From NCBI GenBank assembly GCA_044222185.1, contig JBGANV010000002.1, positions 800,001-864,000 of the forward strand: a stretch of DNA of 64,000 nt. The letters run 5' to 3'. Below, piece after piece: positions 21,235 through 29,644 of this stretch (the first letter of the stretch is position 1; each line of letters opens with the position of its first letter). Source of the DNA: Planctomycetota bacterium. GTDB lineage: Bacteria; Planctomycetota; GCA-002687715; CAIWVZ01. The notes beneath the pieces were generated by a model. That model made no database searches. It was given only the letters and a program-made list of their open reading frames with translations, and was not told the origin of the DNA. The position numbers were made by a program, and so were the translations under genes.

Positions 21235-22707
21235 ATGACTCGGACTTCCCGCCCGGCCTTGTTGATCGTCCTTCTATCTTGGATTCCGTCGGCCGTGAGC
21301 TTGGCTCAACAGGTGACCGAGAACTGCGCCGTCGCGGTTCTGACGCCGGGAGCCAGCGCCACTTTGTGCCCGGCGAACACGCATCCGGACGACACGCACG
21401 TCCTCGATCTTTCGGGGTCGACGACGGCCGCCAGCACCGCTTCGACGTATCGCTCACTCTGTGGCGGGGATCGCGTCGAATTCACGCTTGGCGTCGCCGT
21501 CGTCGATGGACCTGGCCCCGATCTCCAGATCGAGGAGATCAACCCCAACACGGCCGAGCCCTATCGCATCGAGGTGTCGCCCGACGGAGTGACGTGGTAT
21601 CCGGCGCCGGGTCCCTACACCGGAGGGACGCACGCCGGTGACAGCGTCGTCGATCTCGCCGGCATCCTGACCGCGCCCGTGCAGTTCGTCGCGATCATCG
21701 ACGCGTCGCTCACGACGGCGGGCACGACGCCGGGACCCGACTTCGATGCGATCATCGCGATCAACTATCAGGCGCCCCTCTTCGGCGGATCGGTGCACGC
21801 ATACGCGGACACCGTCATCGCGCATGTCCCGGGCGCGTCGACCACGAACCTGTTCGTCGACCCGACGCGCGCCCTCGGCATGCCCGACGCGTACAGAGTC
21901 GAGACGTTCGTCGGCCCGGGGACGACGACCTTCGCCGGCAGCTTCTTCAATTTCGTGAGCCTACCCGCGGGCGCGAACCTCACGGTCCTCTTCAGTCGAA
22001 GCTGGATCGTCGATGGGCCCGGCGCGGATGTCGTCATTCACGAGTACTACGGCGCCGAGCCTCAGTACACGGTCGAGGCCAGCGACGACGGCACCTCCTT
22101 CGTGCCGCTGGCATTCGTCGGCGACGTGGCACCGGCGCACAGCCCGAGTCACGTGGCGTCCGCGAACGTGCGCGCCTTCGACCTTGCGGGGTCCGGGCTG
22201 GCGCGGGCCGATTACATCCGCATCACTTCCACTTCGACGGCCACGACGTCTGGGTCGCCAGGCCCTGACATCGACGCCGTCGAGGCGCTCCACGCCACCG
22301 CGAAGGATCTGTGGTTCGCCCCGCTCGCGCCGCTGAGCCAGGGCGGGACCGGCTCGGTGATCATGACGTCGCCCGCGCACGGCGGCGAACCCTACATCAC
22401 CGTCGCCGGCCTCAATCCACCCGTCCCCGCAGGCAGCGGGCTCCCGCTGCCAGGCGGTGGGGAAGTGCGAGTGGACGTGTTCGGGGATCCCTTGATCCAG
22501 TTCGAGCTGACCGACCCTGCGGCGGCGCTCTTCTTCGGCGGTCTGAGCGGGACGCTGCCGTTCGCCACGGCGACGGCCGTCACGACGATGACGTTGCCTC
22601 CGGCGCCACCGTCGCTCTCCGGGATCGTGCTCACCTGGCAGTCCGTCGTCCTTTCCCCATCGGGCGCGATCGTGCCGTCGGGGTTGTTGTGGACGCGCAT
22701 TCCGTGA
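21235..22707 (+). CDS. Secreted protein with two tandem jelly-roll-like domains plus shared C-terminal domain
   Basis: GAGGAG RBS; ...VSLA|Q; duplicated motif VDGPGxD...E...VxxSxDG...DLAG...GPDxDA. Confidence 0.8.
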   Translation: MTRTSRPALLIVLLSWIPSAVSLAQQVTENCAVAVLTPGASATLCPANTHPDDTHVLDLSGSTTAASTASTYRSLCGGDRVEFTLGVAVVDGPGPDLQIEEINPNTAEPYRIEVSPDGVTWYPAPGPYTGGTHAGDSVVDLAGILTAPVQFVAIIDASLTTAGTTPGPDFDAIIAINYQAPLFGGSVHAYADTVIAHVPGASTTNLFVDPTRALGMPDAYRVETFVGPGTTTFAGSFFNFVSLPAGANLTVLFSRSWIVDGPGADVVIHEYYGAEPQYTVEASDDGTSFVPLAFVGDVAPAHSPSHVASANVRAFDLAGSGLARADYIRITSTSTATTSGSPGPDIDAVEALHATAKDLWFAPLAPLSQGGTGSVIMTSPAHGGEPYITVAGLNPPVPAGSGLPLPGGGEVRVDVFGDPLIQFELTDPAAALFFGGLSGTLPFATATAVTTMTLPPAPPSLSGIVLTWQSVVLSPSGAIVPSGLLWTRIP

Positions 22708-22736
22708 CGTGAAGACGACGGTCCACGACCAGACCG

Positions 22737-24344
22737 TCACGGCGCTTCGTAGATCTCGATTGCGCGCAGGTCGGCGCGGAAGACGGTTCGCTTCGAGAGT
22801 CGCGACTTCAGAGGTTCGAGGGCTGGATCCTTCCACTCGGTGGCGCCGCCAGGGATCTCCTTCTCGCCGACGAGCACGAGGCACTCGATGGCACCGAGGT
22901 CGAGCGGCGGCTCGATCTCGGGCGGCGCGAGGCGGGCGCGGATCTCCTCCTTCCAGTCGTCCGCGACTGGGCGTGAGGTCGCCGCCTGCGGGCGTGTCCG
23001 GCGCTCGAAGGACTTCAGCGAGTCGCAGACGTTCGAGTGGCCGAACGCGCGGTGAAGGACCGGACGGAGTGTCTCGGCGCCCTCGTGGCAGACGAGAACG
23101 CGATGCTCGCCCGCGCGCGTCGCCGTCACGAGGAATGCGCAGAGATCGGACGCGTGGCGGCGGAACGTCTCGGACTCGGCGACCGCGGGGAGGGTGAGGA
23201 AGCAGGTGCCGGTGAGAGCGAGCGCGGCCACCAGTTGGAGGGGTCTGGGCCAGCGCACCGACAGCACGAGCGAAGCCGCGATCAGGCAGAGGATCATGGG
23301 TCCCACGAAGGGCGAAGCGATCCTGGGGGGAAAGCTCATGAAAGCCGTCACGCCGCAGACGATCAGCATCGTCAGTGCCCCAAGCGTGACGAACGATCGC
23401 GTGACGATCGAGCGGAAGCGGATGAGAAGCGCCGCGCCGACCAATCCGCCGACGACCCCGAAGAACACCGGATCCGGCGCCCCGACCGGTCCGAGCTGCT
23501 GGACGAGGAGGCGCGCCTGATCGGCGATGGAGCTCATGCGGTCCTGGATTTCGTAAGCCGGGACGCCGCGCAGTCGTTTCGACCCGAGGATCACGCTCGC
23601 GAGCAGAGGCGTCCAGAGCACGGCGGCGATGACGCCGCTCCGAAGCGCGAGGCGCGTGACTTCCACGCAAACCGATCGCCATGGCGCTCGGGGCGTCGCA
23701 TCTGCGCCGCGCAGCAGCATGGCGGTGGTGATCCACAGCGGAACCAGCAGTGCGAGGTTCGACGGGAGCGTGTAGAGCAGGAGGGCCGAGATGCCGGCGA
23801 AGGCCCAACGCGTTCTGCCGGTCATCTGTGGGGCGAGGCCCACGTCGTTCATCGCACGTGCGACGAGGTCACCCCGCGCGACGAGCAGGAGTCCGTACCC
23901 GAGCTGGAGTGTGATCGAGAGGAAGTAGCCACGCAGCGCCATCGCCTGCTCGTGCACGGCGCGCGCAAGAGACGGAGCGAGCATGGCGACTGTCGCTGCG
24001 AAGATCGCGCCGCGGGCCATCAGCGCCCGTCGCCAGCCGCGAAGGATGAGGAGGAACGTCAGCAGAACGACGAATCCAGCGAGGCGCACGTAGACCGGCG
24101 AGTCGAGGCCGAGAGTGTCGACGAGCACGCTCTTCAGCAGACTTTCGAGCGGATGGTTGTTCGGTTCGCGATAGAGCGCGGCGGCACTGAGTGGTGAGCG
24201 AGCGTAAGTCCGCAGATTGTAGGCCTCGTCCCACGTGAGGTCGTTTCCCGCTCGCGCGAGCCACGTGTAGGCCATGAACAGGACGATCGCTGCCGTCGCT
24301 GCCGCAAGTAGCCGCTCGAGCCATCCATTTGCATCCGTCTTCAT
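22737..24344 (-). CDS. Polytopic membrane protein, GT-C-fold glycosyltransferase-like (ArnT/PMT type)
   Basis: TM1 followed by LTWDEAYN and NNHPL, ALRGY, many TM segments, soluble C-terminal tail. Confidence 0.65.
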   Translation of the reverse strand: MKTDANGWLERLLAAATAAIVLFMAYTWLARAGNDLTWDEAYNLRTYARSPLSAAALYREPNNHPLESLLKSVLVDTLGLDSPVYVRLAGFVVLLTFLLILRGWRRALMARGAIFAATVAMLAPSLARAVHEQAMALRGYFLSITLQLGYGLLLVARGDLVARAMNDVGLAPQMTGRTRWAFAGISALLLYTLPSNLALLVPLWITTAMLLRGADATPRAPWRSVCVEVTRLALRSGVIAAVLWTPLLASVILGSKRLRGVPAYEIQDRMSSIADQARLLVQQLGPVGAPDPVFFGVVGGLVGAALLIRFRSIVTRSFVTLGALTMLIVCGVTAFMSFPPRIASPFVGPMILCLIAASLVLSVRWPRPLQLVAALALTGTCFLTLPAVAESETFRRHASDLCAFLVTATRAGEHRVLVCHEGAETLRPVLHRAFGHSNVCDSLKSFERRTRPQAATSRPVADDWKEEIRARLAPPEIEPPLDLGAIECLVLVGEKEIPGGATEWKDPALEPLKSRLSKRTVFRADLRAIEIYEAP

Positions 24345-24385
24345 CCGTTGCCGGTTCTTATCACGGAACGCTCCTCTTCCATCCT

Positions 24386-24538
24386 GGAGCGCCAGGTTTC
24401 ACCTGGCCGGACCGTCAGGGCTCCAGCCCTGACGAGGGCGTGGCGGGGCGTTCCTCACCGACGGAGCGCGAACGGAGGGGGGTGGCGAGCAGGCAGGGCT
24501 GGAGCCCTGCCAACCGGCCAGGCAGAGCCTGGCGCTCC
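24386..24538. repeat. Palindromic REPIN/MITE-like element, copy 1 (153 bp)
   Basis: Ends GGAGCGCCAGGTTTCACCTGGCCGG ... CCGGCCAGGCAGAGCCTGGCGCTCC; inner hairpins CGTCAGGGCTCCAGCCCTGACG and GCAGGGCTGGAGCCCTGC. Confidence 0.8.
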
Positions 24539-24542
24539 TGCG

Positions 24543-24615
24543 CGACCGCCGAACGACCGCCGAACGACCGCCGAACGACCGCCGAACGAACGACGAAGGG
24601 CGAACGAAGGGCGAA
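24543..24615. repeat. 11-bp tandem repeat (CGACCGCCGAA x4, then CGAAGGGCGAA x2)
   Basis: Read directly between element copies 1 and 2. Confidence 0.85.
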
Positions 24616-24619
24616 TCGT

Positions 24620-24772
24620 GGAGCGCCAGGTTCCACCTGGCCGGACCGTCAGGGCTCCAGCCCTGACGCGCGCGTTACAGAGCGTTCCTCACCGACCGAG
24701 CCCGAACGAAGGAGCGTGACGCGCAGGCATGCCTGGCCCCCCGTCAACCCGCCAGGCAGAGCCTGGCGCCTC
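24620..24772. repeat. Palindromic REPIN/MITE-like element, copy 2 (153 bp, right arm degenerate)
   Basis: Direct repeat of copy 1: GGAGCGCCAGGTTCCACCTGGCCGGACCGTCAGGGCTCCAGCCCTGACG...CGTTCCTCACCGAC...GCCAGGCAGAGCCTGGCGC. Confidence 0.8.
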
Positions 24773-24843
24773 TGCGCGGAGCAAGCCGGTGAGCAAGAAA
24801 CCGGCTCGGTCGCGAATGGCCGCGGTAGGCTTGCGGTCGACTC

Positions 24844-25602
24844 GTGAAGTTCCCCGTCCAATTCAGCATCGGGCCGTTCACGTTCCAGGCGCACCTCGTC
24901 CTCGAATTGCTGGCGTGGTTCGTCGGGTCACAGGTCTACTGGTTCCTGCGGCGCCGATGGGCGGATCCGCTCGACCTCCGCATGCGGCTCGTGGTGATTG
25001 CCGGCGCTGCCGCGGGAGCGTTGATCGGGTCGAAAGTCGTCGCCGTCGCCGAGCGGACGCCCGAGATCCCCGCGCTCTGGAACGACATCACCTTCTGGAT
25101 GGGCGGGAAGTCCATCGTCGGCGGGCTCCTCGGGGGGCTCGTCGGCGTCGAGTGGATCAAGCGCACCTTGGAGGAGACGCGGTCGACGGGCGACCTCTTC
25201 GTGCTGCCGCTTTGCGCCGCGATCGCTGTGGGACGGGTCGGGTGCTTTCTGTCGGGCTTGGATGACCACACCTACGGCACGGCGACGTCGCTGCCCTGGG
25301 GCATCGATTTCGGCGATGGCATCCCGCGCCATCCGACACAGCTCTACGAGATCGTCGCCCTCGGTGCGATCGCCCTGTGGGCCGTGCGGAATCGCCAGCG
25401 CATGACGCGCTCTGGCGACCTCTTTCGCGGCTTCATGATCCTGTATCTCGTCTGGCGGTCGTTCATCGACTGCTGGAAGCCTGACGCGCGCCTCGTGCTC
25501 GGCCTGACGGGCATCCAGTTGGCGTGCGTCTGCGGGCTCGCGTATTACGCCCGCGACTTCACGCGCGTTTTCCTCGCTCGGAGGTTCGCATCCCATGGCT
25601 GA
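24844..25602 (+). CDS. Prolipoprotein diacylglyceryl transferase (Lgt) family protein, divergent paralog
   Basis: GGKSIVGGLLGG, GRVGCFLSG, LPWGIDFGDG, RHPTQLYE, YxxxRxxxD; about 7 TM. Confidence 0.85.
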   Translation: MKFPVQFSIGPFTFQAHLVLELLAWFVGSQVYWFLRRRWADPLDLRMRLVVIAGAAAGALIGSKVVAVAERTPEIPALWNDITFWMGGKSIVGGLLGGLVGVEWIKRTLEETRSTGDLFVLPLCAAIAVGRVGCFLSGLDDHTYGTATSLPWGIDFGDGIPRHPTQLYEIVALGAIALWAVRNRQRMTRSGDLFRGFMILYLVWRSFIDCWKPDARLVLGLTGIQLACVCGLAYYARDFTRVFLARRFASHG

Positions 25603-27061
25603 TCGTGTCCGGCCGTACCTCTTCTACGACGTGGCGATCTCGATCTGCTCCACGTGCTTCAGGAAGGTCGAGGCCAAGATCGTCTTCCAGGACGGCAAGG
25701 TCTACATGCTGAAGCGCTGCCCCGAGCACGGCGGGGAACGCGTGCTGGTCGCCGACGACGTGGACTACTACCGGCGCTCGCGCGAGGTGTTCATCAAGCC
25801 TCCCGAGCAACCCAATCGGTTCAACACGGAGACGCGGTGGGGATGCCCCTACGACTGCGGACTCTGCCCGGACCACGAGCAGCACTCGTGCCTTTCACTC
25901 GTAGAGGTGACGGATCAATGCAACCTGCGTTGCCCCGTCTGCTACGCGAGCAGCGGGCCGGAGCGCCAGGGATTCCGGTCGCTCGAAGAGATCGAGTTCC
26001 TGATGGACGTGATCGTCAAGAACGAGCGTGAGCCGGACGTCGTTCAGATCTCGGGCGGCGAACCGACGCTCCACCCCGACTTCTTCGCGATCCTGGATGC
26101 AGCCAAGTCGCGCCCGATCCGCCACCTCATGGTGAACACCAACGGCGTGCGGATCGCCGACGATCCCGCGTTCGTGGATCGGCTCGCCACCTACATGCCG
26201 GGTTTCGAGATCTACCTCCAGTTCGATTCCTTCGAGCGCGAGGCCCTTCTCGCGCTGCGGGGCGTCGACCTCCGCGATTCGCGCCGCCGTGCCATCGAGA
26301 ATCTCAACGCGGCCGGCATTTCCACGACGCTCGTGGTGACGCTGAAGAAGGGCCTGAACGATCACGAGGTCGGAGACATCATCCGCTTCGGTCTCGCGCA
26401 GCCATGCGTGCGAGGTGTGACGTTCCAACCGGTGCAGGATGCGGGACGCACCGGGGGATTCGATCCAGCGAAGCACCGCCTCACGCTCACGGAGGTCCGC
26501 CGGATGATCCTCGATCAGTCGGGCGTGTTTCGCCCCGAGGACGTCATTCCGGTGCCGTGTCACCCCGACAGTCTCGCGATGGCGTACGCGCTGAAGGTGG
26601 ACGGCAACGTGATCCCCCTCACCGGAATGATCGACCCGAAGGTCCTGATCGACGGCGCGCGCAACACGATCGTGTACGAGGAGGACCGGGGACTGCGGAA
26701 CGCGATCTTCAAGCTGTTCGCCACGAACCACTCTCCGGAATCGGGGGCGAGATCGCTTCGCGACCTGCTCTGTTGCCTGCCGCGCATCGCCGCCGGCCCG
26801 GGTCTCAGCTACGAGAACGTCTTTCGCGTCCTCATCATGCAGTTCATCGACGCTCACGCATTCGACGTGCGCTCGGTGAAGAAGACGTGCGTGCACATCG
26901 CGCACAAGGACGGCCGGTTGATTCCCTTCGACACCTACAACCTCTTCTATCGTGACGATCTGGAAACACGGCGCCTCGCACCGCTACGGGAGGCTGTGAG
27001 CGCGAGCGACGCGCATCACGGCGTCGCCTCGGGATGCGAGTCGGAAGGATGTGGATCGTGA
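25595..27061 (+). CDS. Radical SAM protein of the tetraether-synthase (Tes/GDGT-MAS, MJ0619) family
   Basis: CSTC...KRCPEHG, GCPYDCGLCPDH, CNLRCPVCYA, QISGGEPT, NTNG, YLQFD, GVTFQPV, PVPCHP, KTCVH...LIPFDTYN. Confidence 0.85.
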   Translation: MADRVRPYLFYDVAISICSTCFRKVEAKIVFQDGKVYMLKRCPEHGGERVLVADDVDYYRRSREVFIKPPEQPNRFNTETRWGCPYDCGLCPDHEQHSCLSLVEVTDQCNLRCPVCYASSGPERQGFRSLEEIEFLMDVIVKNEREPDVVQISGGEPTLHPDFFAILDAAKSRPIRHLMVNTNGVRIADDPAFVDRLATYMPGFEIYLQFDSFEREALLALRGVDLRDSRRRAIENLNAAGISTTLVVTLKKGLNDHEVGDIIRFGLAQPCVRGVTFQPVQDAGRTGGFDPAKHRLTLTEVRRMILDQSGVFRPEDVIPVPCHPDSLAMAYALKVDGNVIPLTGMIDPKVLIDGARNTIVYEEDRGLRNAIFKLFATNHSPESGARSLRDLLCCLPRIAAGPGLSYENVFRVLIMQFIDAHAFDVRSVKKTCVHIAHKDGRLIPFDTYNLFYRDDLETRRLAPLREAVSASDAHHGVASGCESEGCGS

Positions 27062-27423
27062 GCACCCCCTCACCGTCAGAGTGGCCGCCGCAGCCGCCAC
27101 ATCCGCCGCAGCCGCCGCCGGTTCCGCCTCCGCCTCCCGCAGCATTTCAATTCGGTTGCGGACAAGTGTTCGTCGCGGGGCTGATCGCCGTCGGCATCCT
27201 CGTCTCCAGCACGATCCTGCTGGTCGCGATCGACAACTCCAACTTCAAGACCATGCGCCGGAACTGCGCCATCCTCGCCGCAGTCGACCTGGTGATCGTG
27301 GTCGGCGCGATGTTCCTCCTGCGGCCGGCGATTCGTTCGGGACGCCTCACCGTCTGGGTCGGCGGCGTCGTCGGTTTCGCGTTGTCGGCGTTGCTCAACA
27401 CCTTCTGCGCGCAGGTGCTTTAA
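27058..27423 (+). CDS. Small 3-TM membrane protein with Pro-rich N-terminus and C-terminal Cys
   Basis: GTG overlaps the rSAM stop (GTGA); GGAAGG RBS; ends RSGRLTVWVGGVVGFALSALLNTFCAQVL. Confidence 0.75.
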   Translation: MSTPSPSEWPPQPPHPPQPPPVPPPPPAAFQFGCGQVFVAGLIAVGILVSSTILLVAIDNSNFKTMRRNCAILAAVDLVIVVGAMFLLRPAIRSGRLTVWVGGVVGFALSALLNTFCAQVL

Positions 27424-28022
27424 GGCCGAGGCGCGCGTGGCTTCCGAGCGCGCGCCGTTCCGCGCCGCACGATCGGCCGCGTCGGCGAGCGCCGTGCGAC
27501 TTCGACGAAACCGCATTTCTCGAACGCAGAGACCAGCCCCGTCCAGGCGAACACGGGAGGAACCTCGCCTGACTTGGGCTCGATCGGGTAGGCCTCCACC
27601 AACTCGGCACCGTTCGACTTGGCCCATTTCACGGCGGCCTCGATGAGCTCACGCGAGACGCCCCGACCTCGCCAGTCCTTTCGAACGAAGAAGCAGGTGA
27701 TCGACCACACGGGCGCGGCGTCGACGGGCTTCAGGACGCGTGACGTCGCCAGTCGCGGAAACCTGGAGCGAGGCTCCACGGAGATCCACCCGATCGGCTC
27801 ATCCCTGAAAAACGCGACCAGACCGGGCGGCGGACCCGCTTCGACGCGACGCTTCATCAAGCGGCGGTTCCCGTCACCCTGGTTCGCGTCGTACTGGGCC
27901 CGAGTGAGTCGAGGCGTCATGCACCAGCATCCGCCGCAGGCACCTCGTGCGCCGAACAGCGTCTCGAACGCGCCCCAGATCTGCGACGTCAACGGGCGGA
28001 TGGTGAACGTGCGGCGCGGCAT
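27420..28022 (-). CDS. GNAT family N-acetyltransferase
   Basis: GACGGCWCM, WSITCFFVRKDWRGRGVS, VEAYP; GAGGAG RBS before ATG 28022. Confidence 0.88.
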   Translation of the reverse strand: MPRRTFTIRPLTSQIWGAFETLFGARGACGGCWCMTPRLTRAQYDANQGDGNRRLMKRRVEAGPPPGLVAFFRDEPIGWISVEPRSRFPRLATSRVLKPVDAAPVWSITCFFVRKDWRGRGVSRELIEAAVKWAKSNGAELVEAYPIEPKSGEVPPVFAWTGLVSAFEKCGFVEVARRSPTRPIVRRGTARARKPRAPRP

Positions 28023-28060
28023 CTGGGGCTCCTCTTTCTCTGGCTGAGCGCGTCGGATGA

Positions 28061-28088
28061 TTGACAGGCCGCGCGGCAAGACTACTGT
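28061..28088 (+). promoter_or_regulatory. Putative sigma70 promoter
   Basis: TTGACA-N16-TACTGT upstream of the 28175 gene. Confidence 0.5.
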
Positions 28089-28174
28089 GGCCGGTCCTGC
28101 CGATCATCGCGGGCGCCAGCATGGTGGCGCCTCATTGGGAACTGCCTGACCTTACAGACAACGAGGAGAGTCGC

Positions 28175-29644
28175 ATGAAATTGATCCATCGCCGGATCAT
28201 CGCCGTGTCGATCCTGTCAGCGTTCGTATGCGGTGCGCAGCAACCTACCAATCACATCTGGGCGACGAACTTCAGCGGATCCACGAAATCGGTCACTCGT
28301 CTGAACCTCGTCGGTTCTCAGGACAACACGTTCACGTTTGCGGGCACGTTCACCCCGTTTGGCCTCGCGGTCGACCCCACGGGCAACCTGTGGGTCGGGA
28401 GCAACGGGAACTCCGTGTCGAAGGTCGACACCTCCGGCGTCACCGTCGGGACGTTCGTCGTGGGATCGTTCCCGCAGAGCGTCGCCACCGACTCTCAAGG
28501 CAACGTGTTCGTGGCCAACCGCAGCAGCAACTCGGTGACGAAGCTGAACAACTCGGGTGTGGTCCAGGGGACGACGCCACTCGGCGCCGGCGTATCGCCG
28601 ATCGGCATCATCGTCGACCAGTTGGACACGGCGTGGGTGAGCGGCTTCCACGCCAGCACGTCGACGGTTCACCAGCTCTTCCACCTCGACAACGCGGGCG
28701 TCGTCACGAACACGTTCTCGTACACGTCGACCGCGGCAGGGTTCGGATTCTCGTTCCCCACGGTCGACGCGAACGGTGACGTCTGGGTCGCCAACCAGGC
28801 GCGCCTGTCAGTCATGCAGATCGACTCGGCCGGGACCGTCCTGAGCGAGACGCCGCTTTCGCCGGGGCTTCCCCGTGGCTGTGAAGTCGACGGTCTGGGC
28901 TTCTGCTGGGTCGCATCGCAGGGGACGGGCGGCCGGTGTTTCAAGGTCGATCAGTCGGGCGTCGTCGTCGCGACGTACACGGCCCCTTCCGGCACGTCCT
29001 TCACGACCGTGTCGATCGACGCCAACGGCGACCCGTGGGTCTTCGGCTTCAGCTCCGGCTCGGCGACCAAGCTCTGGCAGGTCGACGCGACCGTGCTCGC
29101 AACGACCGCGCTTCCCACGGGCGGCTCGGCCTGGGGCGGTGACTCGGGCAGCTACCACCTCTGCAGGGATCTGTCGCCTTCGGGGGACTTCGACGGCGAC
29201 AGCTTCGCGAACGGCGACGAGGTGGCGAACGGAACCAACCCGCTCGACGCGCGCTCCACGCCGGTGGCGCCGACTCCGATCCAGTCCGGCGTCGCGCATC
29301 CGGGCTCGACGGTGAACATCACGATGCGCCTGCGGCCGGACGCCAATCTCCCGTACATCATGGCGGCATCCGGCGGAGATTCTCCCGGCATCCCGCTCGG
29401 CGACAGCCGCATCGTCCCGTTGAACTTCGACGCGCTGTTCCTGATCTCGTTGCAGCCGAACCCGTTCTTCTCGGGCTTCGTCGGTGCGCTCGATGCCAAC
29501 GGGGACGCGAAGGCGCAGGCGTTCATCCCGGCCGACCCGGGCCTCGTCGGACTCTCGTTCGCCGTCGCGTTCGTCACGCTGAATCCGAGCGCCTCGCTCG
29601 GAATCCAGACGGTGAGCAACTCGACGATCATCAACATCCTATGA
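28175..29644 (+). CDS. Secreted NHL/Vgb-like beta-propeller protein with Ca-binding motif and shared C-terminal domain
   Basis: GAGGAG RBS; ...FVCGA|Q; repeats PFGLAVDPTGNLWV, PQSVATDSQGNVFVAN; DFDGDSFANGDEVANGTNP; ends IPADPGLVGLSF...SNSTIINIL. Confidence 0.85.
   Translation: MKLIHRRIIAVSILSAFVCGAQQPTNHIWATNFSGSTKSVTRLNLVGSQDNTFTFAGTFTPFGLAVDPTGNLWVGSNGNSVSKVDTSGVTVGTFVVGSFPQSVATDSQGNVFVANRSSNSVTKLNNSGVVQGTTPLGAGVSPIGIIVDQLDTAWVSGFHASTSTVHQLFHLDNAGVVTNTFSYTSTAAGFGFSFPTVDANGDVWVANQARLSVMQIDSAGTVLSETPLSPGLPRGCEVDGLGFCWVASQGTGGRCFKVDQSGVVVATYTAPSGTSFTTVSIDANGDPWVFGFSSGSATKLWQVDATVLATTALPTGGSAWGGDSGSYHLCRDLSPSGDFDGDSFANGDEVANGTNPLDARSTPVAPTPIQSGVAHPGSTVNITMRLRPDANLPYIMAASGGDSPGIPLGDSRIVPLNFDALFLISLQPNPFFSGFVGALDANGDAKAQAFIPADPGLVGLSFAVAFVTLNPSASLGIQTVSNSTIINIL

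Follow-up and report, generated by a model that had tools for sequence, protein, structure and literature searches.

We analyzed a candidate lipid-related cassette of three genes in a 64,000-nucleotide stretch of DNA from a Planctomycetota bacterium (assembly GCA_044222185.1, contig JBGANV010000002.1, positions 800,001 to 864,000; this whole stretch is called the window, and coordinates refer to it unless stated otherwise). Three open reading frames (ORFs) on the + strand make up the cassette: 24844-25602 (252 aa), which encodes a paralog of the prolipoprotein diacylglyceryl transferase Lgt; 25595-27061 (488 aa), the gene for a radical S-adenosylmethionine (radical SAM) enzyme resembling archaeal GDGT-MAS/Tes; and 27058-27423 (121 aa from a GTG start), which encodes a small membrane protein with a cysteine close to its C-terminus. 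An earlier interpretation made from the letters of the DNA (the sequence-only reading) had described overlapping stop and start codons for the three genes, and direct reading of both junctions bears this out: the start of the radical SAM gene and the stop of the Lgt paralog share the 8 nt ATGGCTGA (25595-25602), and the start of the small protein gene and the stop of the radical SAM gene share the 4 nt GTGA (27058-27061). Shine-Dalgarno-like sequences precede both starts, GGAGG (25580-25584) 10 nt ahead of the ATG at 25595 and GGAAGGA (27043-27049) ahead of the GTG at 27058. For the small protein, in-frame ATG codons at 27034 and 27049 are possible alternative starts, but the GTG proposed by the sequence-only reading is the best supported of the three, because GGAAGGA lies 8 nt before it. 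The third-position G+C content is 0.88 for the Lgt paralog, 0.85 for the radical SAM gene and 0.83 for the small protein gene. The cassette stands alone, with a divergent gene for a membrane protein and a spacer full of repeats on its upstream side and a convergent GNAT gene on its downstream side.

Lgt transfers diacylglyceryl from phosphatidylglycerol onto the Cys of a lipobox. The first gene product belongs to this family, as the sequence-only reading had assigned it, with 96.1 bits on the Pfam LGT model (PF01790, gathering cut-off 24.9) and 95.7 bits in the genome-wide search; it stays under every NCBIfam lgt equivalog cut-off, the best being TIGR00544 with 46.5 versus 118.9 bits. The earlier proposal presupposed a separate housekeeping lgt, and the genome holds two stronger Lgt genes elsewhere (Pfam LGT 181.5 and 174.1 bits) as well as LspA (110.9 bits) and Lnt (186.2 bits, over its cut-off). 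Therefore, the cassette Lgt is an extra copy. Its Lgt fold was confirmed at the level of a predicted structure: an AlphaFold model built on 49 relatives (pLDDT 93.5, pTM 0.90) gave E. coli Lgt 5azb as the sole PDB match of a Foldseek search at E<=0.001 (1.8e-7, TM 0.63/0.57), and the next PDB match followed at E 0.089. For the active site we compared residues of E. coli Lgt that we take to be catalytically important, namely R143, R239 and Y235. In a pairwise HMMER alignment to 5azb, Arg131 (25234-25236) corresponds to Arg143 and Arg205 (25456-25458) to Arg239; the first position is Arg in 58/58 paralogs and invariant in alignment A2 (n=49), and Arg205 is kept in 58/58 together with Tyr201, which lies four residues before it and aligns with Tyr235. 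Asp209, four residues after Arg205, aligns with Glu243 (D 48, E 8, G 2; n=58). Judged by these alignments, the paralog keeps the phosphate-binding arginines of Lgt. At the positions of H103, N146 and Y26, which are presumably important in E. coli Lgt as well, the paralog has V92, C134 and H17; the first two positions do not discriminate, because the housekeeping copies of the same genome also differ from E. coli there and have Tyr and Cys, respectively.

Archaeal GDGT-MAS/Tes couples the tails of lipid chains by a C-C bond. The second gene product of the cassette, the sole gene of this kind in the genome, lacks a transmembrane stretch and matches Radical_SAM (PF04055, 90 bits) and the HMPTM/Tes zinc ribbon (PF23545, 62.1 bits). 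Its best solved relative is GDGT-MAS (7tol, E 4e-68, residues 14-323 and 400-466), which agrees with the tetraether-synthase-like radical SAM identity given to this gene by the sequence-only reading. On the NCBIfam Tes model (NF045702) it scores 273.2 bits, below the cut-off of 450 that the control proteins of M. jannaschii, S. acidocaldarius and M. acetivorans pass, and it is well matched only at model positions 3-314; on the TrsS model (NF045646) it reaches 321.9 bits, below the cut-off of 490. Three metal-binding motifs can be read from the protein and are followed here through 78 family members: a rubredoxin-type motif C18-x2-C21-x20-C42-x2-H45 (25646-25729; kept in 77-78/78), an N-terminal auxiliary cluster motif C84-x3-C88-x2-C91 with His94/His97 (25844-25885; 78/78) and the radical SAM cluster motif C109-x3-C113-x2-C116 (25919-25942; 78/78). 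In GDGT-MAS, the rubredoxin motif is C9X2C12X20C33X2H36 and the N-terminal cluster is bound by C73, C77 and C80 plus His; the spacings of all three motifs are identical in both enzymes (Lloyd 2022, PMC9433317; this and the other papers are cited from the available parts of their text). By motif comparison, three of the four GDGT-MAS metal sites are retained.

Three hydrophobic stretches can be seen in the third gene product. Its helix 3 ends in the motif ...ALLNTF-C-AQVL with Cys117 (codon 27406-27408; alignment A1), which lies five residues from the C-terminus, so the earlier description as a Cys-tailed membrane protein holds. No Pfam or NCBIfam family matches the protein, and the Protein Atlas returned nothing at >=0.9 (the best at 0.89, unnamed Actinomycetota clusters, is a lead that was not used). 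The protein is a distant member of what we call family A, a recurring three-helix protein of about 100 aa that follows the radical SAM gene and whose last helix ends with G..[IV]G.....LL[NS]xxC. Against a family A hidden Markov model built without it, the window's protein scored 22.4 bits, compared with 9.9 for the best of 200 shuffled and 6.0 for the reversed sequence. Apart from the start, only Leu112 and Cys117 are invariant in alignment A1 (n=19), and in a wider family A alignment the Cys117 column holds Cys in 22/24. A second family-A-like ORF of 116 aa with the ending ...GLNTA-C-WRVYG was found on another contig of the same genome (G000:C5:12869-13210, which is L107:2370-2720); it scores 26.7 bits on the family profile, has no adjoining Lgt or radical SAM gene and could represent a trans-encoded substrate.

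To follow the cassette beyond the window, species-representative genomes were scanned, which yielded 536 relatives of the radical SAM enzyme, and the best 80 loci were kept. In these loci, which carry mostly Acidobacteriota labels besides Planctomycetota, Eisenbacteria, Elusimicrobia, Proteobacteria and others, the radical SAM enzyme is 62-77% identical. An Lgt-like gene (35-58% identity) lies upstream on the same strand in 73/80, at a distance of up to 100 nt in 25, of 100-1000 nt in 33 and of more than 1000 nt in 15 loci; two of the seven loci without it (L018 and L072) have less than 1.1 kb of upstream sequence. The sequence-only reading had made its proposal depend on conservation of the whole trio. 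This stands for the enzyme pair and for the type of the third gene but not for its sequence, since tblastn with the window's small protein found it in 0/80 loci. Taking this as absence of the third gene was rejected after profile and motif searches had found ORFs with a cysteine at the end of a hydrophobic helix (helix-Cys ORFs). In detail, a criterion independent of the families (14 residues with a mean hydropathy of at least 1.7 ahead of a Cys) revealed a helix-Cys ORF in the cassette zone of 64/80 loci, which rises to 73/80 in combination with the family profiles and to 76/80 with those visible by eye in L035, L036 and L040. The cassette zone holds 95 such ORFs in 137 kb (0.69/kb) versus 64 in 836 kb outside (0.077/kb), a ninefold enrichment. 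The placement is also patterned: of the 25 loci in which both enzyme genes abut, 22 have a helix-Cys ORF after the radical SAM gene and 0 have one between the two, and where a gap of more than 100 nt separates them (48 loci), helix-Cys ORFs are found inside the gap in 39. In a set of 18 loci that are more distant or variant, helix-Cys ORFs were seen in 7/10 with an adjacent Lgt-like gene and, doubtfully, in 2 of 8 without one; one further extra locus, L106, has no radical SAM gene.

The small proteins fall into several families. Members of family B are about 280-320 aa long and, in one to five tandem copies, occupy the gap between the enzyme genes in other loci; they start with M[ED]RxxxNTLRT... 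and have a single long helix followed by LLL[SAG][LMIF]-C, with Cys in 21/21. Further small families (60-150 aa) share the helix-Cys, for instance two-helix hairpins that start with MK and close their first helix with ...LSS[IL]-C-A... In a profile search of the 80 loci, 27 had family A and 27 had family B, with 3 loci positive for both families and 29 for none; where small membrane proteins are present, a locus encodes one to five of them. Nine helix-Cys representatives were searched, and none has a Pfam or NCBIfam family over threshold. The third component is conserved as a type, with its cysteine at a helix end, and not as a sequence, across several unrelated families.

The surroundings of this cysteine were compared over the 95 helix-Cys ORFs and follow the context LL-x-[SGAT]-x-C-[AF]-[GA]: 63 of them have Leu at -5, 58 have Leu at -4, and S, G, A or T occupies -2 in 83. 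Position -1 is variable (L 29, A 18, S 11, T 9, I 8, M 8, G 6; 35 with G/A/S), and the cysteine is followed by Ala (40) or Phe (18) at +1 and Gly (36) or Ala (16) at +2. The canonical lipobox, [LVI][ASTVI][GAS]C closing an N-terminal signal peptide (PMC12462473), is fitted by only 5/95, the window's own motif being NTF-C, and the cysteine can stand in the first (37), middle (27) or last third (31) of the protein. As so few fit the lipobox and only 35/95 have G, A or S at -1, cleavage by LspA is unlikely for most of these putative targets, and the canonical Lgt/LspA pathway would mostly not recognise such sites. The charges around the helix allow a prediction of the membrane side: the 12 residues that precede the uncharged stretch contain on average 2.36 Lys and Arg together, versus 0.75 in the 12 after the Cys, with more before than after in 75/95, the reverse in 7 and equal numbers in 13. 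This predicts the Cys on the outer membrane face, at the end of an in-to-out helix. Some helix-Cys proteins (L066, L088, L089) carry a zinc-ribbon-like N-terminal CxxC...CxxC, which fits a cytoplasmic N-terminus.

Furthermore, a complex between the Lgt paralog and the window's small protein was predicted with an ipSAE of 0.60 (runs 0.64, 0.58, 0.60), compared with a best value of 0.00 for three controls; at least 85% of the contacts agree across the three runs and the partner pLDDT is at least 70. In the calibration of the ipSAE mark, 58/80 solved complexes and 2/110 mismatched pairs reached it, and at 0.60 or under only 7 of those 80 solved complexes together with both passing mismatches, so the prediction lends weak support to the pairing.

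Taken together, the three genes form a conserved, dedicated membrane cassette of an Lgt paralog, a cytoplasmic Tes-like radical SAM enzyme and one or more helix-Cys membrane proteins. The invariant Cys and its lipobox-like context fit a lipidation of this Cys by the paralog. The reading we prefer, tentatively and at somewhat less than an even chance, is that the Lgt paralog lipidates the helix cysteines and the radical SAM enzyme couples lipid tails. The paralog would transfer diacylglyceryl from a phosphatidylglycerol-type donor onto the helix-end Cys, the radical SAM enzyme would make a C-C bond between lipid tail ends, and both acts would converge on one product, in which a membrane protein is covalently linked to a lipid that is macrocyclic or spans the bilayer. 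With the Cys predicted on the outer side and the radical SAM enzyme on the inner, we also consider the order in which the enzyme may first modify an inner-leaflet donor lipid, which the paralog then transfers to the Cys. In family A proteins with a small residue at -1, cleavage could even release a short lipopeptide of the Cys plus 4 to about 15 residues, which is speculation. The end product of this proposal would be a new, widespread and so far overlooked post-translational modification, a non-canonical lipobox Cys joined to a glycerolipid whose tails have been welded by a radical SAM enzyme into a macrocycle or bilayer-spanning tether, carried by integral membrane proteins or by very short C-terminal peptides released from them; in this specific form we hold it to be doubtful, well short of an even chance.

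Several observations weigh against the preferred reading. In the C-terminal cluster region of the radical SAM enzyme, four cysteines (322, 393, 394 and 432) are invariant among 78 relatives, but the equivalent of GDGT-MAS Cys438 is Ile in 78/78 and that of Tyr459 is Ile in 77/78; at the position of Met439, 67 relatives have Met and 11 have Val. Met439 and Tyr459 are described as completely conserved across 1000 archaeal homologues (Lloyd 2022, PMC9433317), and as Tyr459 is lost here, the chemistry may differ from tail-tail coupling. It is also difficult to see how the enzyme would act directly on the anchored lipid, as the predicted topology has the Cys outside and an Fe-S/SAM enzyme must be cytoplasmic. 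The orientation of the window's own small protein is ambiguous, since both of its loops carry positive charges, and its assignment rests on the family and not on the protein itself. The controls of the complex prediction were unrelated proteins not shown to be membrane proteins, and helix packing alone might give such a score. Exceptions exist among the loci, too: within the best 80, L054 has only a remnant and L061, L070 and L073 have no helix-Cys ORF, and the distant Lgt-linked loci L090, L091 and L103 show none either. Finally, no fusion of Lgt and radical SAM domains was found among the longer radical SAM-related proteins searched, which is weak evidence.

The most serious rival is a pathway for free lipids, in which the radical SAM enzyme would be a bacterial synthase of membrane-spanning lipids of the iso-diabolic acid or branched glycerol dialkyl glycerol tetraether (brGDGT) type. 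The Lgt-like protein would then remodel head groups or backbones of glycerolipids and the small proteins would be accessory; we regard this pathway, including these roles, as unlikely. The homology to GDGT-MAS speaks for it, bacterial Tes homologues have been proposed for brGDGT synthesis (Zeng 2022, PMC8941075; Halamka 2022, PMC10087280), the closest relatives of the enzyme are mostly Acidobacteriota, and some members are labelled 'tetraether lipid synthase' by JGI. A search for longer forms of the enzyme, which returned only intein-bearing Tes-like proteins and one fusion, adds the distant relative P0124 (893 aa), a Tes-like radical SAM protein (31% identity, 95% query cover) joined to an AMP-binding, acyl-activating domain (PF00501), which hints at acyl substrates for a radical SAM relative. 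This pathway leaves the invariant Cys in several unrelated co-encoded families unexplained. Furthermore, the clade is sparse: orthologues of the cassette enzyme occur in 13 of 201 sampled Acidobacteriota genomes and, at 59% identity or more, in 18 of 201 sampled from the window's phylum, where an Lgt-like gene adjoins the radical SAM gene in 16 of the 18 (of the other two, one lies at a contig edge and one has none nearby). Commoner Tes-like genes exist in Acidobacteriota, as 32 of the 201 genomes have one over the NCBIfam Tes cut-off and about 83 (including three flagged as unpublished, G240, G265 and G368) hold a further full-length clade of about 300-352 bits with frames of about 640-860 aa; the Lgt-linked clade reaches 216-240 bits on the Tes model, at positions 2-315 only. 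Genomes such as G215 carry both this 300-352-bit clade and the Lgt-linked one, and the former copy stands beside neither Lgt gene. Judged by these NCBIfam bit scores, on which all statements on Tes-like clades rest, the Lgt-linked clade is distinct from the two commoner ones; at least three Tes-like clades coexist in Acidobacteriota, and the two commoner ones are the better candidates for membrane-spanning lipid synthesis. Tes homologues have also been reported in only 3/14 iso-diabolic-acid-producing acidobacteria (Sahonero-Canavesi 2022).

A second alternative, which we consider rather improbable, keeps the lipidation step and gives it another purpose: the paralog would lipidate the small proteins, and these would anchor or recruit the soluble radical SAM enzyme, which acts on bulk lipids. 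Docking of this kind draws on the same genomic evidence as the preferred reading and avoids its inside/outside problem, and an enzyme without membrane segment must, like GDGT-MAS, reach lipid tails from the cytoplasm. GDGT-MAS binds lipid tails and also E. coli phospholipids (Lloyd 2022, PMC9433317), which speaks for the preferred reading as well. The small proteins themselves speak against docking, as diverse, multi-family and often duplicated (1-5) proteins suit substrates better than a conserved docking partner, and the radical SAM enzyme itself, at 62-77% identity across the loci, does not share their diversity.

Still less probable, in our view, is an action of the radical SAM enzyme on the Cys or the peptide itself, for example in a carbon-sulfur link between tail and Cys, with the Lgt-like protein in a different transfer role. 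In its favour, the C-terminal cluster region is altered (I414 and I435 beside the invariant Cys 322, 393, 394 and 432), the multiple, tandem and fast-evolving small ORFs resemble precursor peptides, and the chemistry of GDGT-MAS passes through an intermediate with a carbon-sulfur bond from the substrate to a cluster sulfide (Lloyd 2022, PMC9433317). In conflict with it, the charges place the Cys across the membrane from a cytoplasmic Fe-S enzyme (75/95), the motif resembles a lipobox and thus a known type of target of the Lgt family, and the enzyme belongs to a lipid-binding superfamily, which argues for a lipid substrate. That the adjacency is meaningless and the small ORF a chance ORF or unrelated membrane protein has next to no probability: its failure to appear by tblastn and its lack of a Pfam or NCBIfam family are outweighed by a gene pair kept over several phyla and 35-72% G+C, and by the tight, ninefold enriched placement of the helix-Cys ORFs.

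The distribution of the genes also bears on the history of the cassette. The genomes that carry it range from 35 to 72% G+C, and the window's radical SAM enzyme is up to 77% identical to copies in Acidobacteriota versus at most 73% within its own phylum, which together suggests lateral spread. A genome of the same phylum with 35% G+C encodes the Lgt-like protein, two 93-aa three-helix proteins ending with ...LLIGMGS-C, and then the radical SAM enzyme. In each of three Acidobacteriota genomes there is exactly one Lgt of the paralog type, with about 360 bits on the profile of the paralogs (one of the three is split), beside one housekeeping Lgt (94-97 bits). In G214, the genome of locus L048 (a Bryobacteraceae record), the gene of the Lgt paralog is interrupted, its two parts being separated by about 1.1 kb (C1:313579-315400), and the radical SAM gene beside it appears intact. 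In the window's phylum, distant paralogs of the radical SAM enzyme (37-42% identity) with an Lgt-like neighbour, in the order radical SAM then Lgt, are found in G213, G025, G204 and G210, and distant copies without such a neighbour in G142 (two copies), G074, G143 and G098. One of the Lgt-linked paralogs, L088 (G210:C73, 3107-4510, - strand), has an in-frame TGA after ...CCAPGES, which could encode selenocysteine as in the TrsS family; a zinc-ribbon and helix-Cys protein lies upstream of it and the Lgt-like gene downstream. On the TrsS model, distant Lgt-linked relatives reach 338.6 and 345.3 bits (cut-off 490). A TGA that seemed to lie inside the radical SAM gene of G033 was also considered as selenocysteine and rejected, since it is a true stop codon. 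At L097 (G143:C299, 3136-6162, - strand), two Tes-like radical SAM genes stand in tandem without an Lgt-like neighbour or helix-Cys ORFs. In a search with the radical SAM enzyme, at least 8000 clusters at 90% identity scored at E<=1e-20.

Around the cassette, the divergent gene (22737-24344, - strand) encodes a 535-aa polytopic membrane protein without a Pfam or NCBIfam family at E<=0.01. Directly upstream of the cassette (24381-24778), two copies (85% identical) of a palindrome-rich repeat of 164 nt flank five tandem units of 11 nt (CGACCGCCGAA, 24532-24608); the 164-nt element has 145 matches genome-wide and is therefore a dispersed repeat of the repetitive extragenic palindromic type. No RNA family was found by Rfam in 22000-29000. 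A promoter scan showed no promoter-like site and was not used as evidence, and neither was a terminator scan, whose single terminator-like site lies inside the radical SAM gene on the opposite strand and below the shuffle mean. Contigs from the RNA libraries of one study cover 26374-26658 and 27177-27381, which is only a weak hint of transcription, because DNA can occur in such libraries and there was no silent-stretch control; the lack of such cover at 24700-26373 and 26659-27176 carries no meaning either way. At least part of the DNA occurs in 20 runs of 9 studies of activated-sludge and bioreactor metagenomes, and 4 runs contain half or more of its sequence words, one of which is possibly the source of the DNA.

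If the new modification described above exists, it would be the first protein anchor of this welded-tail kind, and the 'bacterial Tes homologues' with which brGDGT producers are sought would have a second role outside lipid synthesis. The geochemical literature counts such homologues among the candidates for a brGDGT synthase that has long been looked for (Zeng 2022, PMC8941075; Halamka 2022, PMC10087280). Furthermore, an Lgt paralog with co-encoded non-canonical Cys substrates would widen the rules of bacterial protein lipidation. The large Lgt-linked Tes-like clade has a different and very specific genomic partnership, and gene surveys should not lump it with the other clades. As the cassette is small (three genes), occurs in cultivable phyla and gives clear predictions, the proposal is directly testable.

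Bacterial Tes homologues have been noted without a function (Lloyd 2022, PMC9433317; Zeng 2022, PMC8941075; 2026 review PMC13459092). A literature search that combined diacylglyceryl transferase, lipobox or Lgt with Tes or radical SAM found no relevant paper, and the word 'Lgt' has 0 occurrences in PMC13159169, PMC13274423 and the 2026 review PMC13459092. No description of an Lgt partner or of cysteine-bearing neighbours of bacterial Tes homologues was found in the available text of the literature searched, which does not cover the TrsS paper (Haft and Tolstoy 2025). The closest bacterial counterpart in chemistry is Mss of Thermotoga (Sahonero-Canavesi 2022), a radical SAM enzyme that likewise couples fatty-acyl tails in bacteria; in contrast to the cassette enzyme it is described as only remotely related to Tes, and in the available part of that paper Lgt occurs 0 times and neither an Lgt partner nor Cys proteins are mentioned. 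Among the NCBIfam models TrsS scores best and matches the cassette enzyme over its full length (residues 15-453; model positions 4-434 of 441), but the window's gene has no in-frame TGA and stays well below the cut-off (321.9 versus 490 bits). With GDGT-MAS/Tes (MJ0619, PDB 7tol/7tom) the enzyme shares its solubility and the need to address lipid tails; it differs in a region between residues 324 and 399 that is about 35 residues shorter, and, unlike archaeal Tes, it is found in a bacterial host with ester lipids next to an obligatory Lgt-like neighbour. The Lgt paralog resembles E. coli Lgt (5azb) in its Pfam LGT domain, its predicted fold, the invariant equivalents of R143, R239 and Y235, and E243 kept as Asp or Glu, and its presumed target Cys likewise stands at the outer end of a hydrophobic helix after positive charges. 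In contrast to E. coli Lgt, it is a divergent third copy of 252 aa with a shorter loop following the GRxGC motif. A radical SAM gene is always linked to it, and the helices presumed to be its targets lie internally or C-terminally in polytopic proteins. These helices look like a lipoprotein signal peptide, with a positive n-region, a hydrophobic h-region, small residues and a Cys predicted at the outer face, but unlike those of canonical lipoproteins they lie inside polytopic proteins and their residues are mostly unsuited to signal peptidase II. We therefore rate the cassette as a combination of known kinds, in which lipoprotein lipidation and radical-SAM lipid coupling seem to be joined in a single set of genes.

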